A stretch of 47,458 bases of DNA from an uncultured bacterium (GCA_902783135.1 CACZPY010000336.1:1-47458); one strand, 5' to 3'; shown: positions 1-21,722, counted from the first letter of the stretch. Numbers and translations are program-made. The notes: a model not told the origin generated them from the letters alone.

Positions 1-498
1 GAGCTGCGGCGCGAAGTTGCGCACGCCCTGCAGCGCGATCGACCCGATGACGGTGAACGCCGCCGCGTCGTCGCTGACGTTGTCCGGGATCTTGGCGCAG
101 AGGTGACGCGGCACGCAGACGAACTCCGCGTGCGGCCCGTTGGAAGCGACCCGATCGCCGACCTTGAATCCGGTCACGCCCGCGCCGACTTCGATCACCG
201 TGCCGACGTTGCAGTACCCGAGCGGCAGCGGCTGGCTAAGTTTGTTGAAGACCGCCTCCAGGGTCGGCCGGATGCCGTCGGTGCGCATCTTGTCGAGCAC
301 CTGCTTCACGCGGTCGGGCTGCTGGCGCGCCTTGTCGAGCAGCCCCGCCTTGCCGAATTCGACCAGCATCCGCTCGGTGCCCAGCGAGACCAAGGTCCGC
401 CGGGTGCTGATCAGCAGCGCCCCGCGCCGGACTTGCGGCACCGGGACCTCCTCCAGAATCGTTCCGCCGTTCTTGAGGTCCTGAATGATCTGTTTCAT
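1..498 (-). CDS. Bi-domain / zinc-ADH-like oxidoreductase, N-terminal part (gene runs off the left window edge)
   Basis: Absent from the ORF track because it is open at the edge. My reverse translation from ATG 498-496 reads MKQIIQDLKNGGTILEEVPVPQVRRGALLISTRRTLVSLGTERMLVEFGKAGLLDKARQQPDRVKQVLDKM...PLPLGYCNVGTVIEVGAGVTGFKVGDRVASNGPHAEF. This is a GroES-like/ADH N-terminus as seen in 'bi-domain' oxidoreductases of polysaccharide loci. Confidence 0.7.
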   Translation of the reverse strand, partial: MKQIIQDLKNGGTILEEVPVPQVRRGALLISTRRTLVSLGTERMLVEFGKAGLLDKARQQPDRVKQVLDKMRTDGIRPTLEAVFNKLSQPLPLGYCNVGTVIEVGAGVTGFKVGDRVASNGPHAEFVCVPRHLCAKIPDNVSDDAAAFTVIGSIALQGVRNFAPQL

Positions 499-547
499 CA
501 GTGCAATCTCTTTCGGAATCACATGGGTTTATATATAATATATCACA

Positions 548-1679
548 CTATTGTCTGTTTTCACAACACCGCACGGACTCTTTTTCCAAGATATGCACAA
601 ATCGCAATGTCCGCGCCTCCGGAGTCAGGAACTCCCGCCGCGGACTTTTCCCGCTTCGACGAGTTCGCTCCGGCGCAACGGATCGTTGGTCAGACGGTAC
701 ACCGCCTCGCCCGCCGACTCGGGCGACAACGGGTCGAAGTACTCCGCCGCGCTGCCGCAGAGGTTCCTCGCGAACGAGAGGTCCGAGGTCAAAATCGGGC
801 ATCCCATCTTCATCGCCTCGGCGTAACTTGCGGAAAAGCATTCCAGAAGAGTCGGCAGAAACATGATATCGCACTGCTCGTAGAGCGACGGGCACTCGCG
901 GATGTCCACCCGACCGACCGGCAGCAGCCACTCGGGAATGGTCGCCGCCGTACAGCCGAAGACCTCCGGAGCCAGCGTCACCACGAAGCGGAACTTGAAA
1001 CCGGGATACTTGCGCCGCAGATACTCCGCGATACGCGGGATGATGCCGAGATTCTTGTGCGGATAGTCCGCCGAGACCGTGAGCAGCGTCACGCCGTCGA
1101 AGGGCGGCAGAGGGTGCGCCACCACTCCTCGCGCCGATCGAAGACCGGGTTGCAGGTGTTGGAAACCGTGTAGACCGGCTTGCCCGGGATGAGTTTCCGC
1201 AACGCGGCGGAGATGGGTTCGCTCTCCGTTATGTATGCGTCGGGGTCGCTCCGGAACGACGCCATGTGCACCATGCGCTTCAGCGCCAGCACCAGCCGTT
1301 CGCGCAGACTCATCAGCAGGAAGAACGGCGAGTCGCCGTAAATGTACTGGGATTTGGCGAATCCGCAGACATGCGGCACCCGGGGACGCCAGTAAGCCGG
1401 TCCGAACACGGTGAACACCATATCGATGCCGCGCGAGGCGACGAGTTCGTCCAGCGCGGGGGCGCGGCGCAGCAGCAGACTGCACTTCGACCGCACGGGA
1501 TAGTCCAGCACTTCGACGTTGGGGGCGGGGACGAACTCCCGCCCCAGCGTCTGCCGCACCTGCGGGGAAACGCACACGACGAAGCGGTGCTGCGGATAAT
1601 CCCCCAGAAGCACGGTCATCGCCGCACACCACGGGATGCTTCCGCCTTTGGTGCAGTTCGCGTTGATCAGAATGTTCAT
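548..1679 (-). pseudogene. GT-B (family 1/4) glycosyltransferase, paralog of 5448..6581, disrupted by two frameshifts
   Basis: Three frames (track ORFs 1089..1847, 625..1632, 548..931) align colinearly with the intact 377-aa paralog. Compare MNILINAN.. with MNILVNAS.., and LLTVSADYPHKNLGIIP with MLTVSAAYPHKNLSIIK. Compare also EFLTPEARTLRFVHILE with FKNSSERAAAYLRILE. Frame switches lie near 1111-1115 and 631-640. The probable start at 1679 is 1 nt after the alr stop. Confidence 0.7.
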
Positions 1680-1680
1680 G

Positions 1681-2775
1681 TCATTCCCGCCATACGTTGA
1701 CACACACCCGCGGGACCCGCGGACTGATGCCGCAGACCACTTCGTAACCGATGGTGCCGATCTGCCGCGCCATGTCGTCGGCATCGTACCCGTCGCCGAG
1801 CAGGATCGCTTCGTCTTCGAACTCCGCCTCGGGGATGCCGGTGACATCCGCCATGATCTGATCCATGCATACCAGCCCCACTATCGGCGCCCGTCTGCCC
1901 CGGATCGACACGCTCCCGCAATTGGAAAGATGCCGGTCGTAACCGTCCGCGTAGCCGGTGGGGATGGTCGCCACCCGCATCTCCTCCGTCGCCCGGAAAG
2001 TGCGTCCGTAGCCGATCGTCTCGCCCGGGCGCACCGTCTTGATCATGGAGACCACGGAGTGCCACTCGAGCACCGGCCTGATCCCCGGGGGCAGAGTGCT
2101 GGCGCGGTCGGGCCTGAGCCCGTACAGGATGATGCCCAGCCGGACCAGGTCGCCGAAGGGCTCATGCCACAATCCGCCGGCGGAGTTCATGCAGTGGATA
2201 TGGGGCAGTTTCAGGTCGCGCACCAACGATGCCACATGTTTGAACTTTTCCATCTGGAGCGCGGTGAACTCGTTTTCCTCCGGGGTGTCGGCGACGCAGA
2301 GGTGCGTGAACAACCCCGTGAGGCGGAACTTCCCGGCGAAACGGCGGATGATCCCGGCACACGCCTCGGGATCGTCGGCGTCCAGACCGATGCGGTTCAT
2401 CCCGGTATCGACCGCGAACTGCGCCTTGACGCCGTCTGCGGCAAAACTTCGCGCGTGCTCCTCGGAGAGCAGCGCCTGCGTGATGTCGCCCGCGATGAGT
2501 TCCCCGGCGGCGGACGCCGGAGTGTACCCGAGGATCAGAATCTGCCCCGCGATCCCGGCGGAGCGCAGTTCCAGCGCTTCGTCGAGGCTCGCCACGGCGA
2601 AATTGCGGCAGCCGGCAGTTTGCAGTTCCTTCGCGACCGGCACGGCGCCGTGACCGTAGCCGTTCGCCTTGACCACCGCCATGATCTCCCGTCGCGGCGA
2701 TATGAGCGAGCGGCAGATCCGGTAGTTTTCGCGCAGTTGCGCCAAGTCGACTGTGACCCACGAACGTTTCAGCAT
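1681..2775 (-). CDS. alr: Alanine racemase
   Basis: 364-aa ORF with the PLP-lysine motif AVVKANGYGHG near the N-terminus. Length and overall pattern (..TGMNRIGL.., ..YGR..) are typical of Alr. Confidence 0.9.
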   Translation of the reverse strand: MLKRSWVTVDLAQLRENYRICRSLISPRREIMAVVKANGYGHGAVPVAKELQTAGCRNFAVASLDEALELRSAGIAGQILILGYTPASAAGELIAGDITQALLSEEHARSFAADGVKAQFAVDTGMNRIGLDADDPEACAGIIRRFAGKFRLTGLFTHLCVADTPEENEFTALQMEKFKHVASLVRDLKLPHIHCMNSAGGLWHEPFGDLVRLGIILYGLRPDRASTLPPGIRPVLEWHSVVSMIKTVRPGETIGYGRTFRATEEMRVATIPTGYADGYDRHLSNCGSVSIRGRRAPIVGLVCMDQIMADVTGIPEAEFEDEAILLGDGYDADDMARQIGTIGYEVVCGISPRVPRVCVNVWRE

Positions 2776-2833
2776 CTTAACGACTCCTGCCCCGAGGGCA
2801 AATTCGAATTCACCATCATGGCCGCCTTCCGCA

Positions 2834-4129
2834 TCAGACCTTGAGCCGCAACTTTCCCGACCGCGTCAGCACCGGTTCCGACCGCTGCTCGACCCGGAAC
2901 GCGATATCCAGGGAACTGAGGTCGAAGAGTTTTTCCGGTTCCGGTATCGGATCGCCGCCCCGCACGAGGTAGATCACCGCCTCGCCGGGACGCTCCTGAT
3001 GGATCTGGATGTGGTCCGCAACGTCGAACGCCCGGTGGTGCCGCCCGAAGATCAGCGACGTCAGCGGGATCTGCTTGCCCGAACGGTCGGCGATGTAGTC
3101 GCCGCTGCGCCCCTCGGCGATGCCGAACGCGGTGCAGACGCCGTTCTTCGTGGATTCGAGCGGCGTCACCAAGTCGCCGGTGTCGTAGCGGATGAGCGGC
3201 ATATCGAAGTTGTGGAACGAGGTGCCGAGCAGCCGCTCCCCGGCGACCTCGGCGTAACCGTAGGTCGCCAGCGGACGGTAGCGGTTGTCGAAGTTTTTGT
3301 CGTAGGCGAGGATGCACATCTCGGAGTGACCGTACCACGAGATGCAGGGAAGTTTCCACTCCGCGAACTTCTCCTTCATGTACGGGAACGGGAACTCCGA
3401 GTGGAGCAGCACCCCGCGGATCGGCGCCAGAAACGCCGCCACTTCTTCGCGCGGACAACAACGCTCCAACTCGGTGACGAAATTGTAGACCGCCGAGGGA
3501 TAGCCGTGGATGTAACGGATCGGCCGCTTGCGGAACAGCACACGCAGTTCCGGCAGATAGTCCGCGACCCGGCGGTAGGTGTTCACCAGAAACTCGTTGT
3601 GCACCGGATTGTAGAGGATGTTGTTGTTTCCGATGTTCTTGCCGCGCAGCGCCATGTTGAGATCGGTGTAGCGGTATTGACGCATCTCCCAGATGAGGTG
3701 CATGTGCGCCCACTCCCGCGCCCACGCCTGTTTGTCCACATAGAAGAAGAACGGTGTGCCGGTGGTGCCGCCGGTGTTGAGCCGGTAGGCGCCGGAAAAT
3801 TCTTCCGCATGCTCGCGGAAGAACGCCTTGTCCGTCACGGGCAGACGCCGGAACGCGTCGAACGAATCGATACGCAAATCGGAGACCCCGTGTCGGCGGT
3901 AAAGTTCGCGGTAACACGGGAATTTTTCCCGGGCGTATTCGACGACTGCCCGCAGTTGCCGCAGCGTGTACGCTTCGCGTTCCGCATCGCTCCATGCGAG
4001 CGACGCCTCCGCGAGTTGGTGAAACTTCCGGTACTGCCCGCCCAGCCGCAGCGAAAACGGGAACAACGCCAACGTCCGACCGATCGGATAAGGCAGTCTT
4101 TCCGCCAATGTCTTGAGTTGTTTTATCAT
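2834..4129 (-). CDS. PaaK/CapK-family adenylate-forming ligase (phenylacetate-CoA-ligase-like)
   Basis: Track ORF 2834..4309 trimmed to ATG 4129 (MIKQLKTLAERL), which overlaps the upstream stop as ATGA. It has the adenylation P-loop-like motif NTGGTTGTPFFF. At 431 aa it resembles the COG1541 'CapK' proteins of capsule loci. Confidence 0.75.
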   Translation of the reverse strand: MIKQLKTLAERLPYPIGRTLALFPFSLRLGGQYRKFHQLAEASLAWSDAEREAYTLRQLRAVVEYAREKFPCYRELYRRHGVSDLRIDSFDAFRRLPVTDKAFFREHAEEFSGAYRLNTGGTTGTPFFFYVDKQAWAREWAHMHLIWEMRQYRYTDLNMALRGKNIGNNNILYNPVHNEFLVNTYRRVADYLPELRVLFRKRPIRYIHGYPSAVYNFVTELERCCPREEVAAFLAPIRGVLLHSEFPFPYMKEKFAEWKLPCISWYGHSEMCILAYDKNFDNRYRPLATYGYAEVAGERLLGTSFHNFDMPLIRYDTGDLVTPLESTKNGVCTAFGIAEGRSGDYIADRSGKQIPLTSLIFGRHHRAFDVADHIQIHQERPGEAVIYLVRGGDPIPEPEKLFDLSSLDIAFRVEQRSEPVLTRSGKLRLKV

Positions 4130-5178
4130 TTTCCCCCTGCTTCGACCTCCGGGAACAACGCACAGATCCGCATCCATATCGTCAGCGGCATGATGTTCCA
4201 GACCAGAAACTTGACGAAATTGACCGGAAATTTCTTCCCGATCCGCAATTTCCATGACGCCATGTTCTTGCCGATATACAGTCCGCCGATCCGCCGTCCC
4301 CACCGCCACATGGACCAGTCCTCAAGCGGGGAACTGATCCGGTCGAGGAGCGCGATCCCCTCCGCCGTATCGGCTCGACGCAGGTTCCCCTCCCCGTCGA
4401 AGCGGTGAAAACCCGGTTCGGCGCCGCCGTCATCATTCAGCCGTACCGTCAGCCCCCAGTCGGTTCCCGGGTACAACGCGCTCTCGGGATGCGGAAAGCA
4501 GAAGTTGCCGAGCGAATAGTACACCGGCTTGCCCCGGTAGAGTTCCCGCCCCTGAAAAACGTGGCTGTGGCTTCCGAACACCCCGTCCGCTCCGGCGTCG
4601 ATCCACCGGTGCGCCAAACGGATCTGCCGCGGCGACGGATAACGGGTGTATTCGCTCTCCTTGCCCCTGTGCGGGCAAACGTACACCCGGTCGAAACGGA
4701 TTTTGAGACGCGCCAAGAGCGGCAGAACATCCTCCTCCCGGAAGATCCTGCTCCCGCGGCTGCGGCAGCGTTCGAGACAACCGATGACGGCGACCCGTTT
4801 GCCGTCGGCGTCCAACTCCGCGTAGGGGTGTTCCACGGTCCCGAAGAAGCGCACGTTCGGAAACTTGGCTTCCAGACGCCGCAGCTGCGCGGTGAAATCC
4901 CCGGCATCGCAGACGTGGTTGTTGGCGACGGAGAGCGCGGCGAAGCGCCCGACGTTTTCCTCCGTCGCCCGGTCGGGCGGCAGTACGCTGGTGTAGGCCT
5001 TGCCCGAAGCGACACCGGCATCGGCGAAGGCGCACTCCAGATTGGCCACCCGCAGTCCCGGAGCCATTTCCGTATCCAGCGCCCGGACCGGAACGTAATC
5101 TCCGCAAAAGCAAAGCGGCTGCCCGTTTCGCCCGGCAAAACCCGTATCACCGTTCGTGGTCTTTTGCGACATCTTCAA
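4126..5178 (-). CDS. CapA/PGA_cap-family metallophosphatase-like protein with hydrophobic C-terminal tail
   Basis: Motifs RVANLECAF, ANNHVCDAG, CPHRGKESEY and GSHSHVFQG match the CapA/PgsA-family signature order. The start is TTG 5178 or ATG 5172. Confidence 0.75.
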   Translation of the reverse strand: MKMSQKTTNGDTGFAGRNGQPLCFCGDYVPVRALDTEMAPGLRVANLECAFADAGVASGKAYTSVLPPDRATEENVGRFAALSVANNHVCDAGDFTAQLRRLEAKFPNVRFFGTVEHPYAELDADGKRVAVIGCLERCRSRGSRIFREEDVLPLLARLKIRFDRVYVCPHRGKESEYTRYPSPRQIRLAHRWIDAGADGVFGSHSHVFQGRELYRGKPVYYSLGNFCFPHPESALYPGTDWGLTVRLNDDGGAEPGFHRFDGEGNLRRADTAEGIALLDRISSPLEDWSMWRWGRRIGGLYIGKNMASWKLRIGKKFPVNFVKFLVWNIMPLTIWMRICALFPEVEAGGK

Positions 5179-5353
5179 AAACCTCCGCGAACCTCCTGCC
5201 GGAGGTCTCCGGCAGAAAATGCTGAACCCGCTCGAAGCCGCGCCGGAAATCGTCGCCGTAGCGGAGCTTTTTTATATGCCTCCCCTCTATCCGGCATGCC
5301 AGATTCTGCCCCCATACCGGCAGATGATTATAGACATCCATTTTAGTTATCAT
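5147..5353 (-). CDS. Hypothetical small protein (68 aa)
   Basis: ATG-initiated ORF filling the gap between the GT at 5448 and the CapA-like gene. It has no recognisable motif and overlaps the CapA-like start by about 26-32 nt. Confidence 0.25.
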   Translation of the reverse strand: MITKMDVYNHLPVWGQNLACRIEGRHIKKLRYGDDFRRGFERVQHFLPETSGRRFAEVFEDVAKDHER

Positions 5354-5447
5354 GATTCATCCCCTGTGCGAAACAGATGTAATTTGTCGGTTGAATATAC
5401 CATTCCCGGTGCTCCGACCGGGATGTTGCCTCCGCGAACCTGAATCG

Positions 5448-6581
5448 TCATCGCGCACCGCCCTTCTTGGCCGCAATATCTTCGAGTATCCGCAGATAAG
5501 CGGCGGCACGTTCGGAACTGTTCTTGAAAGAGCCCAGTCGCTTTTTACCCGAGGCGACCAGTTCGGCGCGCCGTCCGGGATCGTTCGCCAGGCGGTATAT
5601 GGTTTCGCCGATGCTCTCCGGCGACAGTGGATCGAAATATTCCGCCGCGTCTCCGCACAACCCGCGAGCGAAGCCGAGGGCGGAGGTGGCGACAGGGACC
5701 TTCATCCGCATCGCCTCTGGGTAGTTGGCACTGAAAATATCCATCAATGTCGGTAGGAACATGATGTCGCTCTGTTTGTACAGTGACGGACATTCCCTTA
5801 TATCCACCTTGCCGATGGCGAGCAGCCAGTCCGGACAGTTTCCCGCACCGAAGCCGAAAAAATCCGGCGGCAGGGTCACGACGAAGCGGAACTTGAAATC
5901 CGGATATTTGTGGAGCAAATATTTCGCTGTCGGTTTGATGATCGAAAGGTTCTTGTGCGGATACGCCGCCGAAACGGTGAGCATGGTCGTGCCGGAAAAC
6001 TCCGGCAACTTGAATTCCCGCCACTCCGTCGGCGCGTCAAAGACCGGATTGTAAGTGTTGCTGACGACCTCGATGCGTTTTCCGGGAAAGCTCCGGCGCA
6101 TGCGCTGAGCGGCATCCGCCGATTCGACGCAAAAAACGTCGGAGTCGCGGCGGAACATCGGGAACAGCACCATCCGGCGCACCTTGAACCGCAGAAACGA
6201 CCACCACGGGATCAGCCGGTAAAATGGCGAGTCGTAATAGAGGTGGCAACCATATGCGAAACCGCAGAGGTGCGGTACCGGCGGTCGCCAATACGACGGT
6301 CCGAAGACCGTGAAGACCGCATCTGCGGCAAATTCGCGGGTCAGTCGTTCCAAAAGAGCATTTCTGCGCCGAATCCGCTGCACCATGCCGGGCGCCGGGG
6401 CGACCTCGATGCGGATGAAATCCGGAAAATCCTTTAAGTCGCCGAGCGAATTTGCAACTTCTCGGGAGCACACGACGAGATAGCGGTGCTCCGGGTGGTC
6501 GCGCAGTTCGCGGATGAAGGCGTCGCCTACTTGGATGCCGCCGCCCTTGGTAAGATTGGATGCGTTGACAAGTATATTCAT
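5448..6581 (-). CDS. Glycosyltransferase, GT-B fold (family 1/4)
   Basis: 377 aa with a C-terminal GT1-type region ..IMFLPTLMDIFSANYPEAMRMKVPVATS... It is the intact paralog of the frameshifted copy at 548..1679. Confidence 0.85.
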   Translation of the reverse strand: MNILVNASNLTKGGGIQVGDAFIRELRDHPEHRYLVVCSREVANSLGDLKDFPDFIRIEVAPAPGMVQRIRRRNALLERLTREFAADAVFTVFGPSYWRPPVPHLCGFAYGCHLYYDSPFYRLIPWWSFLRFKVRRMVLFPMFRRDSDVFCVESADAAQRMRRSFPGKRIEVVSNTYNPVFDAPTEWREFKLPEFSGTTMLTVSAAYPHKNLSIIKPTAKYLLHKYPDFKFRFVVTLPPDFFGFGAGNCPDWLLAIGKVDIRECPSLYKQSDIMFLPTLMDIFSANYPEAMRMKVPVATSALGFARGLCGDAAEYFDPLSPESIGETIYRLANDPGRRAELVASGKKRLGSFKNSSERAAAYLRILEDIAAKKGGAR

Positions 6582-7705
6582 TATTTATTCTGCATTGCGT
6601 ATTTCAATGCTTCGACCATATTTTCCGCATTGTTCCGAGGAGAAATCGATTCAAATAATTTTTTGGATATCCTTCCGTGTTCGGCTATCTTTTCGGGATG
6701 ATCAATATAAAATTCCATGGCCCCCCGCAGACGTACATAATTTTTTATCGGTACACGAAACCCGTTCACGCCGGGTTCAATCAGGTGCCACGCCGCACCG
6801 CATTCGGTAGTGGATATTATCGGCATGCCGGCGCTCGCCGCCTCGTTCAGCACCACGCCCCAGCCGTCGTGAAGAGTTGGCAGCACAAAACAGTCGCAAC
6901 TGTTGTATACCCCCGCCATCCGATCCGACGGTCTGCGACCGGCGAACAGCACGCCGGCCGCGATTTTCTCTTTTCGGCAGAAGCGGAGGTATTCGGAATT
7001 GTCGCCGCCGCCAACGAACACGAGACGGCATTTTTCCCGCTTTTCCGGCGGCAATGCTGCATACGCCCGCAGCAGCCAGATGATCCCCTTTCCTGGACAA
7101 AGCGTTGCGGAGCACAAAAAGACGATCCGTCCTCCGGCAAAGGCTTCGATCTCCGACGACCTCGGCTCAGGCGGCAGTGCCGGGATGGCGTACGGCAGAA
7201 TGCGGATTCGGTCTTTCGGGATGCCCCACTCCGAAAGTTCGTCCTGCGCCAGCTTGCCCTGTGCCAATGCCAGTAGCGCATGATCGCGGATGAAACCGAT
7301 ATGACGCCGCATGCGGATCCGGTTGAGCGGACGATAAAACCATTTGAACAAAGAAAGATCGTATCTGACCATTTTGGCGAAGCCGGTCCCGGTGCGCTCC
7401 CCCCAATGACACCATTCGAGCCCATGCCTGACGGCAAGTTCCGCCAACACTCGGCCGCCCCGCGCATCGAATGAGGGAATGATATGAACGTATCCCTCCA
7501 TTTTCGGATCGGCTATGCTCTCCGGATGGGCAAAAACGGCATAACTTTCCGGTTCGGGAGCGACCCAGCCCTGAGCCTGCCGCGACTCCAGCAGTGCCCG
7601 ATCGTAATAGCGTACCGCGAGTTCCACGTCTTCACGCGCATGCAGCGCTTCGAAGAAGAAGTGCTGGTGATGCGACGGGATATTCATCCAGATGCAGATC
7701 TTCAT
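6581..7705 (-). CDS. Glycosyltransferase family 4
   Basis: Carries ..CFVLPTLHDGWGVVLNEAASAGMPIISTTECG.. (EX7E-type motif). The track ORF (GTG 7735) is trimmed to ATG 7705 (MKICIWMN), 5 nt after the upstream stop. Confidence 0.85.
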   Translation of the reverse strand: MKICIWMNIPSHHQHFFFEALHAREDVELAVRYYDRALLESRQAQGWVAPEPESYAVFAHPESIADPKMEGYVHIIPSFDARGGRVLAELAVRHGLEWCHWGERTGTGFAKMVRYDLSLFKWFYRPLNRIRMRRHIGFIRDHALLALAQGKLAQDELSEWGIPKDRIRILPYAIPALPPEPRSSEIEAFAGGRIVFLCSATLCPGKGIIWLLRAYAALPPEKREKCRLVFVGGGDNSEYLRFCRKEKIAAGVLFAGRRPSDRMAGVYNSCDCFVLPTLHDGWGVVLNEAASAGMPIISTTECGAAWHLIEPGVNGFRVPIKNYVRLRGAMEFYIDHPEKIAEHGRISKKLFESISPRNNAENMVEALKYAMQNK

Positions 7706-11251: not shown

Positions 11252-12650
11252 TTTCGTGTCTTTCCTCCGCGGTAAGTCCGCACAAATAGGCATTGGAATA
11301 GACACAGGCGGCGCAAACGTTGCCGTTGAGCCCGAGCGAACCTTCGGGGTTCCACGAAAAGACGCCGCCCGCTCCCGCTCCGTCCGACGCGGTGTGCCGA
11401 ACGCACCATTCTATCGCCTTGTCCACCGCGCGCTCCAACACCGCGTGCTCGGCTTCGGGCATGAGCCCGCGACTCCGGCGCAGCGCGGCGGCAAGCACAG
11501 GAGTCCCTTTGCTGTCGTCGCCGCTCAAGATCTGCAGTCCGTACGGGCGCCACTGGTGCAGCCAGCTGCCGCCGCGCCGCTGCAGACGCAGGACGTTGCG
11601 CACCGTATCCCGCGTGACCTCCAGAAGTTCCGGATCTCTTTCGATCTCGCAGAAGGGCAGCAGTCCTTCAAGCGCCCACGCCTGACCGCGCATGAAAAGC
11701 CCGGTGCCGCGCTGACGGCCGGATGCGTCCAACGCCGTGGCAAAGCGCCCGCCACCCTGATAAAATGCGCGGACATACGCCTTGAGAAAGCGTGCAGCGA
11801 ACTCCAGATGCTCCTCTTTCTTAAGCAGCCGATACAGGTGACAGAACAATCCGGAGGTGAACCCGATATCGACGATGTTGGCGTGGGTCATCCATTTGCC
11901 GTCGCGCAGATTCCACCCAAAGTACGGCAAGTTTCCGGAACTCGCCCGGTGCATGATCCAGTCGGCGCAGCGCAGCGACGCGGTCAGAAAACGTTCGTCG
12001 CCGCTGTGTTCGTACCATTCGAGCATCCCGTGGTCGCAGAGATACGCCGCGTCGTTGGGACCGACGATCCCGTAGACCCCGCGTGCGTCGCGACCGTCCC
12101 GCACCCGCCAGCCGCCGTCGGGCAGCTGACGCGACAACAGTCCTTCGCTCAATTTCCGTGCATCTTCTATGCGACCGAGACGCAGGAAGTGCGGCACGAG
12201 TGCCGAGTTGGTCCAAATCCAGTCCGGGGCGCTCCAGTGATTGACCGAGAGATCGAAGCAGCAGTGGTAGAACCCGGCGTTGCGCCACCCCTCCGGTATC
12301 TGCGCATGTTCGACAAAGGATATCCATAATTTCCGCGCTTCCGGCTGGGCAAGACGGCGGAAACACGTCCTTTCCAAACGCACGCGGTGAAATTCCGCCG
12401 CCTTATGCAGCGACTCCCATGCCCGTCGGTCGGCGACGTTTTCCCATTGGAAAAGCTCTTCTCTGCGCAATTCCATGCCGGGAGCGATCGCGGTGTCGTT
12501 GATGAGACCGCCCGCGTCGGAGGAGGAAAACTCCACCTTGGGTTCGGCTAACTCGCAGCCGTTGACCCCGAAGAGTTTTTCCCTGCGACCGCCGCGGAGA
12601 CCCTTGACCCCGCGGAACACCCCGGAGGCGACTTTGCGTATCAGAATCAT
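11244..12650 (-). CDS. (alpha/alpha)6-barrel protein, glycoside-hydrolase / uronyl-C5-epimerase-like, function unknown
   Basis: The track ORF is trimmed to ATG 12650 (MILIRKV), which overlaps the wzy stop as ATGA. The W/Y/G-rich helical repeat pattern (..WIWTNSALVPHFL.., ..DGGWRV.., ..GQAWALEGL..) suggests a toroid fold. No catalytic motif was assigned. Confidence 0.4.
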   Translation of the reverse strand: MILIRKVASGVFRGVKGLRGGRREKLFGVNGCELAEPKVEFSSSDAGGLINDTAIAPGMELRREELFQWENVADRRAWESLHKAAEFHRVRLERTCFRRLAQPEARKLWISFVEHAQIPEGWRNAGFYHCCFDLSVNHWSAPDWIWTNSALVPHFLRLGRIEDARKLSEGLLSRQLPDGGWRVRDGRDARGVYGIVGPNDAAYLCDHGMLEWYEHSGDERFLTASLRCADWIMHRASSGNLPYFGWNLRDGKWMTHANIVDIGFTSGLFCHLYRLLKKEEHLEFAARFLKAYVRAFYQGGGRFATALDASGRQRGTGLFMRGQAWALEGLLPFCEIERDPELLEVTRDTVRNVLRLQRRGGSWLHQWRPYGLQILSGDDSKGTPVLAAALRRSRGLMPEAEHAVLERAVDKAIEWCVRHTASDGAGAGGVFSWNPEGSLGLNGNVCAACVYSNAYLCGLTAEERHENE

Positions 12651-14053
12651 TGCCGCAATACCGCTTCCCCGTATGACAGTGAGCCTCTTGACGACTTGGG
12701 AGTCCGGCACAACAGCCGGTAGACCTCGAAGATGATCAGCGTCCGCAGCGGATACGCCTGCGTCAAAAAGTGGTTGCTGAAAAATCCGTAGAGCAGCGCC
12801 AGCCCCCAGAAAAAGTATTCCGCGTAAATGATGATATCCCGGGAACAGCAGGCACGATAGTAGAGCCAGTAAGTCAGAAATCCCAATATGAAGCATCCCA
12901 ATATCACCATCGGCCAGCCGCCTTCATAGTAAAATGCTCCTCCGAGCGAAAACGTGTTGTACGGATCGATCCGGATCGGCATCGCGCTCATCCCGATATC
13001 GAACAGCCGCTTCAGTTGGAACGTGGTTATGATCGGCCACAGAATTATCGTGCCGTCTCCATGATTCAACTGGTTTTCCACCAAAAACAGCACATTGGAG
13101 GTCGGCGTCGTGAAATACATATAAGGATTGTACAGGCTCTGAAGCGACTTCGGCAAATCTGCGATATCGTGATAGCGCCGTGCGTAATCGTAGCCGGTCA
13201 TGTATTCCTCTTCGCCGAATTTGCCGCTGCGCAACACACCGTAAAAACTGAACACCGCCGACACGACGACCAGCAGCCCGATTACACCGAGCAGCGTTTT
13301 GCCGAAATGCGTGTTTTTGAGAATATCGCGGCGGTAAAGTTCCAAGGCAAAAACGAACGCCAACACCGCGTTCAGCAACGCCCCCTTGCTCATCTGCAGC
13401 AGGGAAACACAGAAAATCAGGACGAAAACCGCTATCAACGTGAGCTTCTGGCGTTTGCGGACCGCATTGAGGATCACCGCCACATAGAACATGGATAAAG
13501 ATCCGATAATGGCGATACCGCTCTGAGTGCGAATAGTCTGGATATCCTCCTTTGACGAAAAATCCAAGTTGTCGATATCGACATTTATCAGCACCATGAC
13601 GATGGGGATCAGGAACAACAGGAACATCGGCCAAGTGGAATAATCCGTTTCCGGCATTTCCGGAACCCCATGCAATTCCTGCATCTTCTGCAGTTTCTTG
13701 ATCCTGGACGCTCCGATTTTGGACATCGTCAACATCCCGAAAAACACGCCGTATCCGGCGAGGATCAGCACCAGTGCGCCCTCCCATGACGGCAGCGGCA
13801 GATATTTTTCGGAGATATAGTCCGAGTAGAACAAGATGGCGCACGGATAGGTGCTGAACAGCGTGAACGGGCTGAAAAGCCGCGGTTCCACCTGCAAACC
13901 GAAATATAACGATGTCGATATCAGCACGAACATCATAAACTTCAGGAAAACGAGCGCAAACGTGCAGTGCCCTGCCGCAGAAGTCAAACAGGCAGCAACT
14001 CCGGCGGCAAGACAGAGGAAATAAAATATTTTTTTCATAACATATGACGGCAA
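12647..14053 (-). CDS. wzy: Oligosaccharide repeat-unit (O-antigen/capsule) polymerase, Wzy-like
   Basis: 468 aa with roughly 10-12 hydrophobic helices, an AT-richer sequence, and a position between a GT2 and the flippase. TTG 14053 is preceded by GGAGA at 5-nt spacing. ATG 14038 is an alternative start. Confidence 0.65.
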   Translation of the reverse strand: MPSYVMKKIFYFLCLAAGVAACLTSAAGHCTFALVFLKFMMFVLISTSLYFGLQVEPRLFSPFTLFSTYPCAILFYSDYISEKYLPLPSWEGALVLILAGYGVFFGMLTMSKIGASRIKKLQKMQELHGVPEMPETDYSTWPMFLLFLIPIVMVLINVDIDNLDFSSKEDIQTIRTQSGIAIIGSLSMFYVAVILNAVRKRQKLTLIAVFVLIFCVSLLQMSKGALLNAVLAFVFALELYRRDILKNTHFGKTLLGVIGLLVVVSAVFSFYGVLRSGKFGEEEYMTGYDYARRYHDIADLPKSLQSLYNPYMYFTTPTSNVLFLVENQLNHGDGTIILWPIITTFQLKRLFDIGMSAMPIRIDPYNTFSLGGAFYYEGGWPMVILGCFILGFLTYWLYYRACCSRDIIIYAEYFFWGLALLYGFFSNHFLTQAYPLRTLIIFEVYRLLCRTPKSSRGSLSYGEAVLRQ

Positions 14054-14150
14054 AGTTATCTCCAGTTATTGAAAATTCTATTTTTTAGCCCCTTAATAAT
14101 ATCATTGGATGATTTGCATGCAATACGCCCGTCGTAGAAAACAATGCAAT

Positions 14151-15176
14151 TTATTCTTTTCTGCTCCCCGATAACGACCGTAGCAATCCGACACAAAAAA
14201 AAGCGAACGGGTAAATCCAGTCGGAAAATCTTATCGCCAAGCGTTTCGATAATGAAAATCGGTGGTCTTTCATGATGCCACACTTGGCTTCCGGCCACAA
14301 CTTGCGATATTCGGACGGCGGCAACACAAAATGAAGCAATATCCACAGAAGCTGCCATCTTTTGCGGAAATTCCAATCTTCTGCGAACTCCGTACCGGGT
14401 AGCAACTTCTCCAAGATGTCGAGCTCCGAAATCACCTCGTGCACGATGGAGAGTTTCATCCGGCTTCTGCATATACTGCCCGGTCTAATCCGGTAATGGT
14501 AGCAACTACCGTGACAGAATACGATTTTACCGCATTTATTGACTATTTGAATAACTTTATACAAATCCTCCTGACGAACAAATTTCTCCGTGGCTGAGGC
14601 AAATACTTTCTGCGCGATCTCTCTTCGGAACAATTTGTTCCACAAAACCCCGCGCGCAGAGCCGGAAAGTATGCTGTGCAGCATTTCCTCCGTCGAATCG
14701 ACATCGGTCAGGCGTTTCTTTACGTTGTCGTGCTCTCCGAATTCGCTAAAATAATCGCAACAGACACAATCCGCACCGGTTTCGTCAGCCTTGCCGCAAA
14801 GCTCCTCATACAGGTCGAGATCGACCCAATCGTCAGGATCGCAGCAGATCATATAGCGGCCGCAAGCCGCAGCACTGGCGTCCCGACGGGAGAGGACAAT
14901 CCCCTGATTATGCTTATGGCGAATGATTTTTACCTGCGATTTGCGCATTGGAAACTCTTCCAACACCGCTTCAACGATTTCAATACTGCGGTCAGGCGTG
15001 GCATCATCCACGAAAATGAACTCTACACCATCCCGCAGCGTTTGTCCAAAAAGCGAACGGACGCATTGCTCTATATAGGCCTCGACGCCATATACGGCGA
15101 CACAGACAGAAAGCATCACGTCGATGCCGTCCGATTCATATTTCACGTTTTTTTCCGACTTAACCGATTCGATCAT
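14151..15176 (-). CDS. Glycosyltransferase family 2
   Basis: Motifs LSVCVAVYGVEAYIEQCVRSL, FVDDATPDRS and CDPDDW (DXD). The start overlaps the wzx stop as ATGA. Confidence 0.85.
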   Translation of the reverse strand: MIESVKSEKNVKYESDGIDVMLSVCVAVYGVEAYIEQCVRSLFGQTLRDGVEFIFVDDATPDRSIEIVEAVLEEFPMRKSQVKIIRHKHNQGIVLSRRDASAAACGRYMICCDPDDWVDLDLYEELCGKADETGADCVCCDYFSEFGEHDNVKKRLTDVDSTEEMLHSILSGSARGVLWNKLFRREIAQKVFASATEKFVRQEDLYKVIQIVNKCGKIVFCHGSCYHYRIRPGSICRSRMKLSIVHEVISELDILEKLLPGTEFAEDWNFRKRWQLLWILLHFVLPPSEYRKLWPEAKCGIMKDHRFSLSKRLAIRFSDWIYPFAFFCVGLLRSLSGSRKE

Positions 15177-16633
15177 AATGATCTTCCTCTGCCAATCATA
15201 ATCATGAAATATTCCTTCATGAAAGTTATTTCACGCACGCGAAAAATCAACGCCACACCTATGTAAGTCAAAACTGCCGACACCAACTGCAAGATCAATC
15301 CAAGCGTTCCCCCCGAATACACCAAGGATATCCCGAATGCCACGGCTCCGGCGACCGCCGAAAGCAATACCGGCGTTTGAATATCCCGAACGATATCTAT
15401 GAGACGATAATTTATCAACTTGCGGCAAGACCACACGCTGATGAGACTTGCCAACACGGAATGTACCGCCATTCCCGCCGCCAGAACGATCAAGCTCTGG
15501 CGTATGACCAATATCAATATCGACAGTTCCAAAAATTTCTGTACGATTTCCAGCATCAGGCGTTGTCCGCTGTGTCCGCTCGATGTCACCAAATGGAAGC
15601 ATAACATGTTCAGCGGGATACATGCACAAACCAATGTGAATATCTGCAGAAGCGGCACGCATGCGATCCATTGCCGTCCCATGACGACCGGAACGAACGA
15701 CGGAGCGGTGACCGCCAGCACCATTGACGTCGGAATGATGAAGAACGCTATCAACCGATGAGCCGTTGAAAACATTGCGCGCAACGCAGCGCGGTCATTT
15801 TGCATTTTGGCAAACGCCGGGAACATGACCCGGAGAAAGACATCCGACACGCTGCCGACTATTACCTGGGGATAGTATTTGCCGCGGTCAAAAATACCAA
15901 GTTGGCTTCCATCGAAAAATTTTCCTATCAACAGCGGATAAGCCGACATACAAAGTTTGCCCAATAATGTTGCGAGCATATAATTCAGGCCAAACTTCAA
16001 CATCTTCCAAAGCGACCTGAAATCGCACTTCAGCCCGGGTCTCCATCCAATAAGCAGCCACAGCCCGCAAGTATTCACCGCCGTTTTGGTCAATTGTTGG
16101 ATCGCCAACGCCCAAACGCCAAAACCGTGCCAAGCCATGCCTATGCCGATAACGCCGGAAATCAGAAGCGCGGTAAAGTTGATGCGAAAACGTTCCTTGA
16201 AAGCCATCTTGCGCAATAACTGCGCTTCCTGAACAATGCAAAGCGAAAACAGTATGAGGCAAAGCGAAACCACGCGGACCAACGGCACGAGGCCGTCATT
16301 TTGGTAAAAACGCCCTATAGCCGGAGCACACAAAAACAGTATCGCGTATAAGATAAGCGACAGGATAAGATTTACAAAAAATATCGAATTTTCATCTTCC
16401 CGCGTCAGAGAATATTTCTGCACGAGCGCGATGCCGAGACCGGAATTGACCAAAACCTCGGCAATAAGAACAAACGAGGTGACAATCGCCAACATCCCGA
16501 ACTCTTCCGGGCGCAACATCCGGATCAGCAAAAACGACAAAATCAACGCGAGCGACTTTGTCGCCAACTGTTCAATACCGGTCCATATAAAACCGGAGGC
16601 GACTTTTTGTCTCACCGAACTTTCATTCACCAT
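15173..16633 (-). CDS. wzx: Polysaccharide flippase, MOP/Wzx family
   Basis: About 486 aa and multi-pass. The N-terminus (..KVASGFIWTGIEQLATKSLALILSFLLIRMLRPEEFG..) is typical of Wzx/RfbX flippases. ATG 16633 follows the GTG 16636 of the track ORF. Confidence 0.85.
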   Translation of the reverse strand: MVNESSVRQKVASGFIWTGIEQLATKSLALILSFLLIRMLRPEEFGMLAIVTSFVLIAEVLVNSGLGIALVQKYSLTREDENSIFFVNLILSLILYAILFLCAPAIGRFYQNDGLVPLVRVVSLCLILFSLCIVQEAQLLRKMAFKERFRINFTALLISGVIGIGMAWHGFGVWALAIQQLTKTAVNTCGLWLLIGWRPGLKCDFRSLWKMLKFGLNYMLATLLGKLCMSAYPLLIGKFFDGSQLGIFDRGKYYPQVIVGSVSDVFLRVMFPAFAKMQNDRAALRAMFSTAHRLIAFFIIPTSMVLAVTAPSFVPVVMGRQWIACVPLLQIFTLVCACIPLNMLCFHLVTSSGHSGQRLMLEIVQKFLELSILILVIRQSLIVLAAGMAVHSVLASLISVWSCRKLINYRLIDIVRDIQTPVLLSAVAGAVAFGISLVYSGGTLGLILQLVSAVLTYIGVALIFRVREITFMKEYFMIMIGRGRSL

Positions 16634-16681
16634 CACAAAACATTCCGCTTCACATGGAGAGATAATGCATCAGGATGTTTT

Positions 16682-18706: not shown

Positions 18707-19696
18707 TCAATTTTTCAGGTTTTCCCAATACCACAAAACCGCCCGGTGCAACCCGTCGGCGGCATCGAACTCCGGTGCATATCCCAGCAACTTCCGCGCC
18801 CGGTCGATGCTCGCCAGACTGTGCGGGATATCCCCCGCTCGGGGGGAACCGTATCGCGGCGCCACCGCCGCTATTTCCGGATCGAACTTGGCGAGTTCCT
18901 CCCGGAGCGCCGCGTACAATTCGCCGATGGTCGTCCGTTCGCCATACGCGATGTTGTACACCGTGTCGACCGCCTCCTTCTGCTCCGTCAGGATCGCAAG
19001 TTCATTGGCGCGCACCACGTTGTCGACATAGGTGAAGTCGCGGCTGAAACTCCCGTCGCCGTTGATCACGGGCGATTCGTGGTGGATCAGCATCGACGCG
19101 AATTTCGGGATCACCGCCGCGTACGGGCCGTTCGGCGTCTGGCGCGGACCGAAGACGTTGAAGTAACGCAGCCCCACCGTTTCGAAGCCGTAGACGCGGC
19201 TCACGTTCAGCGCGAACAGCTCCTGCGCCCGCTTGCTCGCGGCGTAGGGGGAAAGCGGCTCGCCGATACGATCCTCGCACTTGACGGGCGACGCGTCGTC
19301 ACCGTACACCGAGGAACTCGAAGCGTAGACGAAACGTTTGACCCCCGCTTTTTTCGCCGCGACGACCATGTTGGCGAAACCGCCGACGTTGACGCCCCAC
19401 GAAGTCAGCGGATCGTCGATCGATCGCGGCACCGAACCCAGCGCCGCCTGATGCAGCACGTAATCGACGCCGGAGACCGCTTCGCGACATTTCCGCTCGT
19501 CGCGGATGTCGCCGACGATCAGCTTGAAGTGCGGATCGGCGACCGCCGACCGCAGGTTTTCCATGCGCCCGGTGGAAAAATTGTCCAGCACGACCACTTC
19601 GTTGCCCTGCCGGAGCAGCGCGTCGACCAGATTGGAGCCGATGAACCCGGCTCCGCCGGTCACCAGCACGCGCAAATTTTCAACGTGGGTTTTCAA
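18707..19696 (-). CDS. NAD-dependent nucleotide-sugar 4-epimerase (TviC/WbpP-like, UDP-HexNAc(A) epimerase)
   Basis: Motifs VLVTGGAGFIGSN, ..SPYAASK.. (YxxxK) and ..RYFNVFGPRQ... The TTG start directly abuts the stop of the upstream dehydrogenase, the usual pairing for TviB/TviC-type genes. Confidence 0.85.
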   Translation of the reverse strand: MKTHVENLRVLVTGGAGFIGSNLVDALLRQGNEVVVLDNFSTGRMENLRSAVADPHFKLIVGDIRDERKCREAVSGVDYVLHQAALGSVPRSIDDPLTSWGVNVGGFANMVVAAKKAGVKRFVYASSSSVYGDDASPVKCEDRIGEPLSPYAASKRAQELFALNVSRVYGFETVGLRYFNVFGPRQTPNGPYAAVIPKFASMLIHHESPVINGDGSFSRDFTYVDNVVRANELAILTEQKEAVDTVYNIAYGERTTIGELYAALREELAKFDPEIAAVAPRYGSPRAGDIPHSLASIDRARKLLGYAPEFDAADGLHRAVLWYWENLKN

Positions 19697-20992
19697 TCAC
19701 AGTCTTTCATCGACCGCTTCGCGGGGAAGAATGCCCTTGATGTCGTAAACTGCGACATCTTCACCGCCGAACTTTCCGGCATCGAAGCCGGCGAATTCGC
19801 GGTGCGCGACCGCAAGCACGACCGCGTCGTACTGATCGGCGCCCAGCGAACCGAGGTCGGATACGGTTTTCACGCCGTATTCCTTCTCCACCTCCGCCGG
19901 ATCCGCCCACGGATCCCACACATCCACCCGGCAGCCGAATTCCTCCAGCCCGCGTACCACATCGACCGCGTGGCTGTTGCGGATGTCCGGACAGTTTTCC
20001 TTGAAGGTGATGCCCAGCTGAAGCACTTTGGCGCCCAAGATCCGGTGCCCCTTGCGGATCATCAGTTTGACGATTTCGCTGGCGATGTATTTGCCCATGC
20101 CGTCATTGATGCGCCGTCCGGCGAGGATCACCTCCGGCAGATATCCGAGTTCCTGCGCCTTGTGGGTCAGATAATACGGATCGACGCCGATGCAGTGCCC
20201 GCCGACCAGTCCGGGCTTGAATTTGAGAAAGTTCCACTTGGTCCCGGCGGCCTCCAGCACGTCGTTGGTGTCGATGCCGATCAGGTGGAATATCTTGGCG
20301 AGTTCGTTCACGAACGCGATGTTCAGATCGCGCTGGCTGTTTTCGATGACCTTCGCCGCCTCGGCGACCTTCATCGAACTCGCCTTGTGCGTGCCGTTTT
20401 TGAGGATGCTGTTGTACAGCGCGTCCACCACCTCCGCGACCTCGGGAGTCGAACCGGAGGTGATCTTCTTGATCTTGGTGAGGGTGTGCTCCTTGTCGCC
20501 GGGATTGATGCGCTCGGGACTGTATCCGCAGAAGAAGTCGGCATTGAACTTCATGCCGCTTTCACGCTCCAGCACCGGCACGCACTCCTCCTCGGTGCAC
20601 CCCGGATACACGGTCGATTCGTAGATGACGACCGCGCCTTTTTTCATCGCCTTGCCGACCGTGTCGCTGGCTCCGTAGAGCGGGGAAAGATCGGGGCGGT
20701 TGTATTTGTCCACCGGGGTCGGGACGGCGACGATGAAGATGTCGCGGTCGCGCAGATCGTCCAGCGAATCGGAATAACGCAGCCGCACTGCCGCACGCAA
20801 CTCCTCCGGCGCCGTTTCCAGCGTCGTATCTTCGCCGTTTCTCAACATCTCCAACCGGGAGGTTTTCTTGTCGAACCCCACCGTGTCGAACTTTTTGCCG
20901 AATTCCACCGCCAACGGGAGACCGACATACCCCAACCCGATGACCGCGATCTTTATCTCGCCACTGTTGATTTTCCGCAAGCTGTTCGTCAT
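19697..20992 (-). CDS. UDP-N-acetyl-hexosamine 6-dehydrogenase (TviB/WbpO/CapL-like nucleotide-sugar dehydrogenase)
   Basis: Motifs IAVIGLGYVGLPLA, ..AVPTPV.. and ..GLVGGHCIGVDP.. (catalytic Cys). The ORF is trimmed to ATG 20992, which is preceded by GGAGG. Confidence 0.85.
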   Translation of the reverse strand: MTNSLRKINSGEIKIAVIGLGYVGLPLAVEFGKKFDTVGFDKKTSRLEMLRNGEDTTLETAPEELRAAVRLRYSDSLDDLRDRDIFIVAVPTPVDKYNRPDLSPLYGASDTVGKAMKKGAVVIYESTVYPGCTEEECVPVLERESGMKFNADFFCGYSPERINPGDKEHTLTKIKKITSGSTPEVAEVVDALYNSILKNGTHKASSMKVAEAAKVIENSQRDLNIAFVNELAKIFHLIGIDTNDVLEAAGTKWNFLKFKPGLVGGHCIGVDPYYLTHKAQELGYLPEVILAGRRINDGMGKYIASEIVKLMIRKGHRILGAKVLQLGITFKENCPDIRNSHAVDVVRGLEEFGCRVDVWDPWADPAEVEKEYGVKTVSDLGSLGADQYDAVVLAVAHREFAGFDAGKFGGEDVAVYDIKGILPREAVDERL

Positions 20993-21031
20993 CAATATCC
21001 TCCTTGATTTATTTTGATCCAAAAACGGCGA

Positions 21032-21577
21032 TCAAATCTCCAAATCCCCCGCTTCCCAGCGCATATTGATATTCCGCCCCAGAAACTCGAGGTTGATGAT
21101 CACGTTCAACGCGTCCACCCGCCGGACCACGATCGCATCGTAACCGCGAAACGCGCCGGACTTGATGCGCACCATATCCCCCGCCTGAAGCCCCGGATTC
21201 ACCGTGAGTTCGTGATCCGCCGACTGCAGTTCGCACATCCTGACCGCCCGGAGATCGCGGATCAGCGAATCCTCCTCCGCGGCGGAAAGGGTCTGGATCC
21301 GCCACACGCACTTGTTCGCGCGGATCGCCGGTTCCTCTTCGCGTTCGGCACAGGCGAAGAGATATCCGGAAAACATCGGCAGCCGGGTCTCGCGCCGGCT
21401 CCGGTTGTGCATCTCCACCTTGGTCATGAGCGGCAGATACACCCGTATCCCCGCCGCCGCCAATGTCTTTTCCGCCCATTTTTCGTTGCGCGGGCGGCTC
21501 AGCACCAGGCACCAGCGCTTACCGGGAAACTTTCGGAACGATTCCAGTATTTCATCGCTGACGCTGATGTCGGTCAT
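21032..21577 (-). CDS. NusG/RfaH-family operon-specific transcription antiterminator paralog
   Basis: NGN-like region: RWCLVLSRPRNEKWAEKTLAAAGIRVYLPL...RLPMFSGYLFA. KOW-like region: GDMVRIKSGAFRGYDAIVV. It is the first gene of the long polysaccharide operon. The start is taken at MTDISV (ATG 21577). Confidence 0.8.
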   Translation of the reverse strand: MTDISVSDEILESFRKFPGKRWCLVLSRPRNEKWAEKTLAAAGIRVYLPLMTKVEMHNRSRRETRLPMFSGYLFACAEREEEPAIRANKCVWRIQTLSAAEEDSLIRDLRAVRMCELQSADHELTVNPGLQAGDMVRIKSGAFRGYDAIVVRRVDALNVIINLEFLGRNINMRWEAGDLEI

Positions 21578-21722
21578 CTTTCTCTTCCGGGATCCGGGCA
21601 CGCTTCGCCGACATACGGGGCAACCCCCGTACGCCGTTCCCGCCGATGTGACGGGTATTCCGTCACGGAACGCCGCGCTCAGATCCGCCCGGCGAGCCGT
21701 GTGAACACACTTTAGAAAGCCG

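Follow-up and report, generated by a model that had tools for sequence, protein, structure and literature searches.

A candidate amino-acid tailoring cassette in a Wzx/Wzy polysaccharide operon that also holds the only alanine racemase gene detected in its assembly

Introduction

Many O-antigens, capsules and biofilm matrices contain uronic acids that carry an amino acid in amide linkage. To our knowledge, the enzymes that form this linkage are barely known, and VpsH represents the first genetic assignment. The locus described here raises the question of whether an alanine racemase gene (alr) lying beside a ligase gene in a polysaccharide operon reveals which amino acid is attached, or serves the cell in another way. 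It lies in the window, i.e. the whole stretch of 47,458 nucleotides that was analysed, which is the entire contig C336 of a metagenome-assembled genome (MAG) related to Victivallis/Lentisphaeria (G000; 2.6 Mb, 79% complete, 5.65% contamination). Three genes follow one another on the minus strand in the order CapA-like gene (4126-5178), ligase gene (2834-4129) and alr (1681-2775). The first-pass annotation of this DNA had described three coupled genes here, and their positions and protein families are all confirmed; it had further proposed that alr is a dedicated source of D-alanine (D-Ala) for the ligase, in an operon making a uronic acid. That observation holds, and the interpretation placed on it is partly supported.

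With moderate confidence, we favour the view that the CapA-like and ligase genes form a mobile tailoring cassette within a Wzx/Wzy operon, the ligase amidating a uronic acid and the CapA-like protein editing the product, and that alr is a resident housekeeping gene. By analogy with a system studied in Vibrio, the probable task of the cassette is to attach an amino acid to an acidic sugar in a polysaccharide of the cell surface. The position of alr beside the ligase gene is poor evidence that D-Ala is the added group. The window adds to the subject a ligase subfamily that escapes Pfam and spans more than 10 phyla, together with an optional MslH-like partner that could explain D-configured substituents.

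A VpsH-like adenylate-forming ligase

The ligase gene (2834-4129, minus strand) encodes 431 residues, with NTGGTTGTPFFF at residues 118-129. Full-length colinearity with homologues places the start at ATG 4129, the longer frame 2834-4309 beginning too early. A Pfam scan of the protein gave no match, and NCBIfam returned weak PaaK/F390 matches in the N-terminal part only. The core motifs of the ANL superfamily are all present, namely the P-loop, the YGxTE-like motif, (R)YxTGD, the GRxxD hinge and the C-terminal catalytic lysine, here in the forms TGGTTGTP, WYGHSE, RYDTGD, GRSGD and SGK (Lys426), and they are invariant across 32 homologues. An N-terminal extension of about 45 residues is conserved as well. 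Its predicted model (pLDDT, the predicted local distance difference test score, of 91) finds its best structural matches in the PaaK-family proteins BT_0428, PaaK1, ClxA and NatL2 (E 1e-15), of which NatL2 and ClxA form amides or esters independently of coenzyme A (CoA).

A true PaaK phenylacetate-CoA ligase was considered and rejected: the equivalog model TIGR02155 scores 26 bits against a cut-off of 646 and aligns to residues 48-107 only, and the neighbouring genes are glycan genes. In Vibrio cholerae, the CapK/PaaK-like protein VpsH is genetically required for a glycine amide on the N-acetylgulosaminuronic acid (GulNAcA) of the lipid-linked disaccharide of Vibrio polysaccharide (VPS) (PMC13463779, 2026). 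Our comparison was made with a vps-I-type cluster recognised by gene order in a Vibrio-genus genome, and hence with a VpsH-position protein and not with the N16961 protein itself. The cluster runs from WecB through a dehydrogenase for N-acetylmannosamine, an unannotated 184-residue gene (VpsC by position), a GT4 glycosyltransferase, Wzx, an unannotated 406-residue gene and a hexapeptide transferase to the CapK-like gene, which is followed by another GT4, an unannotated 390-residue gene and WecG. The window ligase aligns colinearly with the CapK-like protein (24% identity over 356 residues, E 6e-19), and the P-loop, YG.xE, RY.TGD and GR.GD motifs line up, which argues for a distant relationship to VpsH and against a PaaK. 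By its motifs and predicted fold, it is a VpsH/CapK-like adenylate-forming ligase of the PaaK-family architecture. The earlier assignment to an adenylating enzyme of a polysaccharide locus, distinct from catabolic PaaK, is thereby upheld. The tree of the family is a quick IQ-TREE reconstruction in which a long branch leads to the VpsH-position protein and makes its exact placement unreliable.

Of 52 genomes of the genus, G000 is the only one with the ligase, apart from a relative of 33% identity in G018. Within G000 a second copy (82% identity) is found on the 2264-nucleotide contig C218, with the start of a GT4 gene 15 nucleotides downstream. That contig carries no CapA-like gene and no alr, and its upstream open reading frame matches neither the CapA-like nor the ATP-grasp proteins; it may represent a second locus or a co-binned strain.

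The CapA-like protein

The gene upstream of the ligase encodes 350 residues if translation begins at TTG 5178, or 348 from ATG 5172, with its end at 4126 on the minus strand. Its stop codon (TGA, 4128-4126) and the ligase start codon (ATG, 4129-4127) share an ATGA at 4126-4129, as had been reported before. The family assignment was likewise borne out, PF09587 (PGA_cap) giving 105 bits against a cut-off of 27; the match covers profile positions 41-253 only, and the GD motif is present upstream of it.

The nearest protein of known structure is MslH, which epimerises the C-terminal tryptophan of a lasso peptide. It is found by sequence (8gq9, E 2.7e-9) and is also the best match in the PDB for the predicted model (pLDDT 87.5; 8itg, E 2.4e-15, TMq 0.62), ahead of YmdB-type phosphoesterases. 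Its catalytic machinery consists of the dyads His88/Asp91 and His295/Asp11 and a calcium site formed by Glu44, Asn87, His259 and His261 (PMC10406935), and its authors proposed that CapA, too, is an epimerase (PMC8179263). In the CapA-like family D27, E48, N87, H88, D91, H170 and H206 are invariant, so that equivalents of MslH D11, E44, N87, H88, D91, H259 and H295 are kept, seven of the eight epimerase residues. As regards the dyads, H88 and D91 align directly and H206 aligns with His295, while D27 of the GD motif is equated with Asp11 by motif position and not by structural superposition. The MslH equivalog model NF038314 gives 47 bits, against a cut-off of 700.

A peptide C-terminus and an N-uronoyl amino acid are both N-acylated and both bear a free alpha-carboxylate, which makes epimerisation the most economical guess for the role of this protein; it is a guess drawn from the conserved active site. 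By hydropathy and model, the protein has no N-terminal membrane anchor, and its C-terminal part consists of four helices and includes a hydrophobic segment (324-342), a feature compatible with work at the membrane. No report of a PgsA epimerase turned up in the open literature.

The assembly holds six further PGA_cap paralogues (on C31, C316, C298, C23, C342 and C314) with open frames of 408-491 codons, scoring 160-192 bits. The one on C23 is followed, at a distance of about 1.7 kb, by a Ddl-like ATP-grasp gene.

An optional pairing of the two genes

Two conserved peptides of the ligase family were found in 84 species genomes from more than 10 phyla, of which 80 loci were kept; neighbours were tallied over these and three metagenomic loci, i.e. 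83 loci. The ligase occurs in glycan loci throughout, with glycosyltransferases, a bi-domain oxidoreductase and nucleoside diphosphate (NDP)-sugar dehydrogenases as its commonest neighbours. Among the 77 called upstream neighbours there are 26 GT4, 11 GT2 and four ATPgrasp_ST genes, and 19 PGA_cap genes that immediately adjoin the ligase on the same strand. Downstream, the bi-domain ADH/GFO oxidoreductase is the most frequent (41 of 72 called), and an NDP-sugar dehydrogenase follows in 14.

A CapA-like gene stands directly upstream in 18 of the 80 loci from different species. These loci are dispersed over the ligase tree, 17 changes being needed for 18 rows against a mean of 16.5 for shuffled labels; CapA-like presence is thus no more clustered than chance, as would fit a step that can be added or left out. 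Ligases that are almost identical may have the partner or lack it, e.g. in L045 and L046. Seen from the other side, a CapK-like ligase lies downstream of 25 of 32 members of the short CapA-like subfamily (those with enough downstream DNA) but of none of 27 generic PGA_cap proteins. The pairing of the two genes is therefore specific but optional.

The slot of the CapA-like gene is taken exactly by an ATPgrasp_ST gene (5814-6959) in L014, whose ligase is the nearest relative (83% identity).

A laterally replaced alanine racemase

The alr product (364 residues; 1681-2775, minus strand) matches Ala_racemase_N (PF01168, E 1.9e-61) and Ala_racemase_C (PF00842, E 1.7e-46) and scores 327 bits with TIGR00492, whose cut-off is 168. 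The motifs VVKANGYGHG (Lys36) and IGYGRT are present, which we take to hold the pyridoxal phosphate-binding lysine and the catalytic tyrosine of alanine racemases. The VanT-G serine racemase model gives 334 bits, about the same as the alr model, against its own cut-off of 460.

A second, housekeeping alr elsewhere in the genome was looked for, and none was found in the 79%-complete assembly: the window copy is the sole alr detected in G000, where Ddl is also present. In G011, too, the counterpart of this gene is the only alr homologue, and in both genomes it must at least supply D-Ala. In most same-genus genomes checked, an ancestral alr lies directly 3' of the gene for RNase Y, and the order RNase Y, alr, aldehyde dehydrogenase recurs in at least nine of them, usually with the gene for 5-formyltetrahydrofolate cyclo-ligase before RNase Y. 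In G000 this site is empty, RNase Y and the aldehyde dehydrogenase being separated by 26 nucleotides (contig C127, locus L041, 2498-2525). It is also empty in G011, which is 97% complete, and in G006. As the only alr in the assembly, with the ancestral site empty, the window gene must serve peptidoglycan synthesis. In G006, which is 94% complete, no alr was detected at all.

Sequence identities tell where the gene belongs. The window alr shares 29-34% identity with the syntenic alr genes of its own genus, 63% with the only alr of G011, 86% with that of the locus L128 and 59-67% with proteins of MAGs labelled Lachnospiraceae. Compared with one of these, G215, which has this alr only, identity is 59% for alr and 46% for RNase Y, whereas within the genus RNase Y is about 80% and alr about 30% identical. 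This reversal indicates that a xenolog replaced the ancestral alr. Its GC content at third codon positions (0.84) resembles that of its neighbours, so the replacement is not recent. Plausibly, alr came in laterally together with DNA of glycan loci, after which the ancestral copy could be dispensed with. The ancestral gene was lost and a copy lodged in a variable glycan operon took its place, a case of xenologous displacement that puts a presumably essential alr into an operon that starts with a NusG/UpxY-like gene. For annotation the case calls for caution, since a racemase beside a pathway can be the cell's only housekeeping copy and not a pathway-specific one.

Whether alr travels with the cassette can be read from related loci. 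L129, a metagenomic contig from a related organism (82-88% identity), has the CapA-like gene, ligase, alr, an intact GT4 and the bi-domain oxidoreductase in this order. L128, whose WecB is 98.7% identical to that of G000, reads GT4, alr, bi-domain oxidoreductase, Hepar, GT4 and on to WecB, with neither ligase nor CapA-like gene. Conversely, L012, L014 and L009 have the ligase followed by the bi-domain gene and no alr. These arrangements, together with C218, show that alr and cassette assort independently. The survey agrees: not one of the 83 further ligase loci covered at first has an alr in the 8 kb around it, although the full triad does recur in one related lineage, L129. The tie between alr and the polysaccharide cassette that the first-pass annotation had drawn thus essentially gives way on both points on which it could be doubted: the gene is unique in the assembly, and it is kept at the locus irrespective of the ligase and CapA-like genes. 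The more particular idea of a dedicated D-Ala source is weakened by the same facts, although the triad repeated in L129 speaks for it. Every bacterium with peptidoglycan already has D-Ala, so that the lack of alr beside other ligases does not exclude D-Ala as a substrate.

Proposed mechanism and alternative explanations

In the mechanism that we favour, by analogy with VpsH, the ligase would adenylate the C-6 carboxylate of an N-acetylhexosamine (HexNAc)-uronic acid made by TviB/TviC-like enzymes, probably on the undecaprenyl-diphosphate-linked repeat unit at the cytoplasmic membrane face, and would then form an amide by transferring the acyl group onto the amino function of a small amine or free amino acid. 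The CapA-like metalloenzyme, to judge from its active-site conservation, might then act on the N-acylated residue with its free alpha-carboxylate, most likely inverting the alpha-carbon from L to D in the way that MslH inverts a C-terminal peptide residue. Comparative genomics places alr outside the cassette, as a horizontally acquired gene that replaced the ancestral one and stays in the glycan locus with or without the cassette, its necessary job being the supply of D-Ala for peptidoglycan. A wider and more tentative proposal, which we regard as possible though not probable, is that short CapA-like proteins ahead of CapK/VpsH-like ligases form a new class of glycan-level amino-acid epimerases that invert an amide-linked residue on the lipid-linked unit. 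If so, D-amino-acid amides in surface polysaccharides could arise without a pool of free D-amino acids; a lineage-specific corollary would be that one laterally acquired alr, of a type residing in glycan operons, took over the whole D-Ala supply of the cell.

Several points weigh against the favoured reading. The chemistry of this polymer is a prediction from the genes. Identity between the ligase and the VpsH-position protein is no more than 24%, and the tree puts the ligase in a separate subfamily. Of 51 loci with a full-length ligase, no more than 19 have an NDP-sugar 6-dehydrogenase within 8 kb, too few to establish a uronic-acid acceptor across the family. In the CapA-like family the position of the calcium ligand His261 of MslH is an invariant glycine, within the motif PHWGKE, and the window copy has arginine at residue 171 of that motif, where more than 90% of the family have tryptophan. 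We know of no CapA protein for which an epimerase role has been shown. As for alr, a MAG of this completeness and contamination does not strictly exclude a second copy. Moreover, the alr clade lies in glycan loci in nine of the 10 contexts examined, five times next to or near a carboxylate-activating enzyme, so that alr and glycan synthesis may be genuinely connected. Besides the window (CapA-like gene, ligase, alr, broken GT4), L129 and L128, these contexts are G011 (ugd, cytidylyltransferase, alr, WecG), L210 (GT4, alr, then rml genes), L209 of genome G215 (rml genes, alr, Ddl), L211 (4102-6080), where the start of alr overlaps the end of a TupA-type ATP-grasp gene, the P0351 contig (PP-binding, AMP-binding, Metallophos, alr, Wzz), the P0258 contig (AMP-binding, an 84-residue gene, PMT_2, a 456-residue gene, alr, WecB) and L212, which is generic and non-glycan. 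The relatives beside other carboxylate-activating enzymes (L211, P0351 and P0258) are 59-66% identical to the window alr. In the open literature we found nothing on alr within polysaccharide gene clusters.

These contexts also count in favour of the triad as one functional unit, in which alr supplies D-Ala and the ligase, helped by the CapA-like protein, couples it to the HexNAc-uronic acid. The three genes are co-directional, their spacers do not exceed 58 nucleotides, no terminator-like site separates them, and the order CapA-like, ligase, alr, GT4, bi-domain gene recurs in L129. We nevertheless consider this explanation unlikely: a gene that is the only alr in the assembly, with the ancestral site vacant, must serve peptidoglycan; alr is missing from all the other ligase loci first surveyed; L128 keeps alr alone, while L012, L014, L009 and C218 keep the ligase alone; and if the CapA-like protein were an epimerase, a separate source of D-Ala would be redundant. 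A ligase that activates a free small acid or amino acid, as DltA does, and N- or O-acylates a sugar, with the CapA-like protein preparing or editing the acceptor, seems decidedly unlikely too, since the one relative studied experimentally, VpsH, has been linked to an amide at the carboxylate of a uronic acid (PMC13463779), the window operon encodes a TviB-like dehydrogenase, and neither a carrier protein nor an aminotransferase occurs among the operon genes scanned. It can draw on the CoA-independent PaaK-family enzymes of small aromatic acids among the structural matches (NatL2, ClxA, AjiA1), on the lack of a 6-dehydrogenase within 8 kb of most ligases, and on the GFO half of the commonest neighbour, whose resemblance to a UDP-GlcNAc 3-dehydrogenase (61 bits) speaks for amino-sugar chemistry.

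We judge it highly improbable that the locus encodes a CapA export or polymerisation system resembling that of poly-gamma-glutamate, or that a true phenylacetate-CoA ligase lies here by chance. The family name PGA_cap and the weak PaaK/F390 matches are what suggest either. Neither CapB nor CapC was found in the window or the 79%-complete assembly (TIGR04012, PF14102), in keeping with the earlier view that a poly-gamma-glutamate capsule is unlikely, and the N-terminal anchor of CapA is missing; the PaaK equivalog falls far below its cut-off, no paa genes lie nearby, and every surveyed context is a glycan locus. Both the poly-gamma-glutamate reading and PaaK membership were accordingly rejected. 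What fits best is a putative carboxylate-amine ligase of the VpsH kind, whose MslH-like partner is optional, next to a resident, displaced housekeeping alr.

Operon layout and assembly

All genes of the operon discussed here lie on the minus strand. The first, at 21032-21601, encodes a NusG/UpxY/RfaH-like protein with NusG and KOW domains (UpxY 65 bits, RfaH 56 bits, both below cut-off). It is followed by a gene for a TviB-like UDP-HexNAc 6-dehydrogenase (19697-21022), which has three UDPG_MGDP_dh domains and scores 578 bits with NF011729 (cut-off 592), and by one for a TviC-like epimerase of the short-chain dehydrogenase/reductase type (18707-19696; NF011728, 318 bits against 760). The TviB/TviC-type pair described earlier is thus present, with profile scores under the cut-offs, and by sequence similarity the TviB-like enzyme is the likely source of the uronic acid. 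Gmd and Fcl come next, and then a Wzx flippase (Polysacc_synt_3, E 9.7e-85), a GT2 and a Wzy-type polymerase (TIGR04370, 58.5 bits) at 12647-16636; flippase and polymerase together point to a Wzx/Wzy-dependent pathway with lipid-linked repeat units. Beyond Wzy, a DUF362 gene stands between two unannotated proteins of 546 and 550 residues, followed by three glycosyltransferases and the CapA-like, ligase and alr genes. A blastp comparison of the 546- and 550-residue proteins and DUF362 with the VpsJ-position protein, the Hepar_II_III protein and the bi-domain oxidoreductase gave nothing significant.

A non-coding gap of 270 nucleotides separates the CapA-like gene from the upstream GT4 (stop at 5448), and 58 nucleotides separate the ligase from alr. 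A single nucleotide lies between the alr stop and the start of a frameshifted GT4 gene (548-1679), which tblastn recovers in two frames (1679-1122 and 1122-631); its counterpart in L129 is intact, aligning over its full length in one frame, and on C218 the start of this GT4 lies directly 3' of the ligase. The broken gene looks like a relic of cassette shuffling around alr. A crude scan of positions 1-6000 found no promoter-like site 5' of alr and no terminator, though promoters of this phylum may differ; its sole promoter-like site was at 566-535, ahead of the bi-domain oxidoreductase.

That last gene (1-498, ADH_zinc_N and GFO_IDH_MocA) is cut by the contig end after its N-terminal 165 codons. 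The fragment matches the L014 protein at residues 1-165 with 94% identity, and the part corresponding to residues 183-707 is found on contig C267 of the same assembly, where it is followed by Hepar_II_III, GT4, two more genes and WecB. The operon therefore reaches past the window.

Comparison with known systems

The window ligase has the two-domain fold and the adenylation motifs in common with PaaK, and differs in failing the equivalog, in the absence of a paa context and in its N-terminal extension. The CapA-like protein belongs to the same Pfam family as CapA/PgsA of PgsBCA systems (PF09587), but it has no CapB/CapC partner and no N-terminal anchor, is paired with an ANL and not a Mur-type ligase, and is shorter than the six other PGA_cap paralogues of G000. 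Another route to such products is the TupA-like ATP-grasp glucuronate amidoligase of the Cj1438 type, which forms an ATP-dependent amide on the uronic acid of Campylobacter jejuni capsules. Its ATP-grasp fold is unrelated to the ANL fold of the window ligase, and in L014 an ATPgrasp_ST gene takes the CapA-like slot.

MslH (8gq9/8itg; PMC10406935) acts on a substrate that, like the one proposed here, is N-acylated and has a free alpha-carboxylate. The CapA-like protein differs from it in length (350 against 440 residues), in its C-terminal helical region, in the glycine at the His261 position and in its setting, a glycan locus and not a cluster for ribosomally synthesised and post-translationally modified peptides; in the structural alignment, global identity is about 16%. 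The differences from VpsH lie in the low identity and the separate subfamily, not covered by Pfam, to which the window ligase belongs. The vps-I-type cluster examined has no CapA-like gene, and the usual partners of the window ligase family are the bi-domain oxidoreductase and a Hepar_II_III-like protein, not VpsJ. What the two enzymes share is that both are CapK/PaaK-like adenylate formers encoded in a Wzx/Wzy exopolysaccharide operon that makes a HexNAc-uronic acid.

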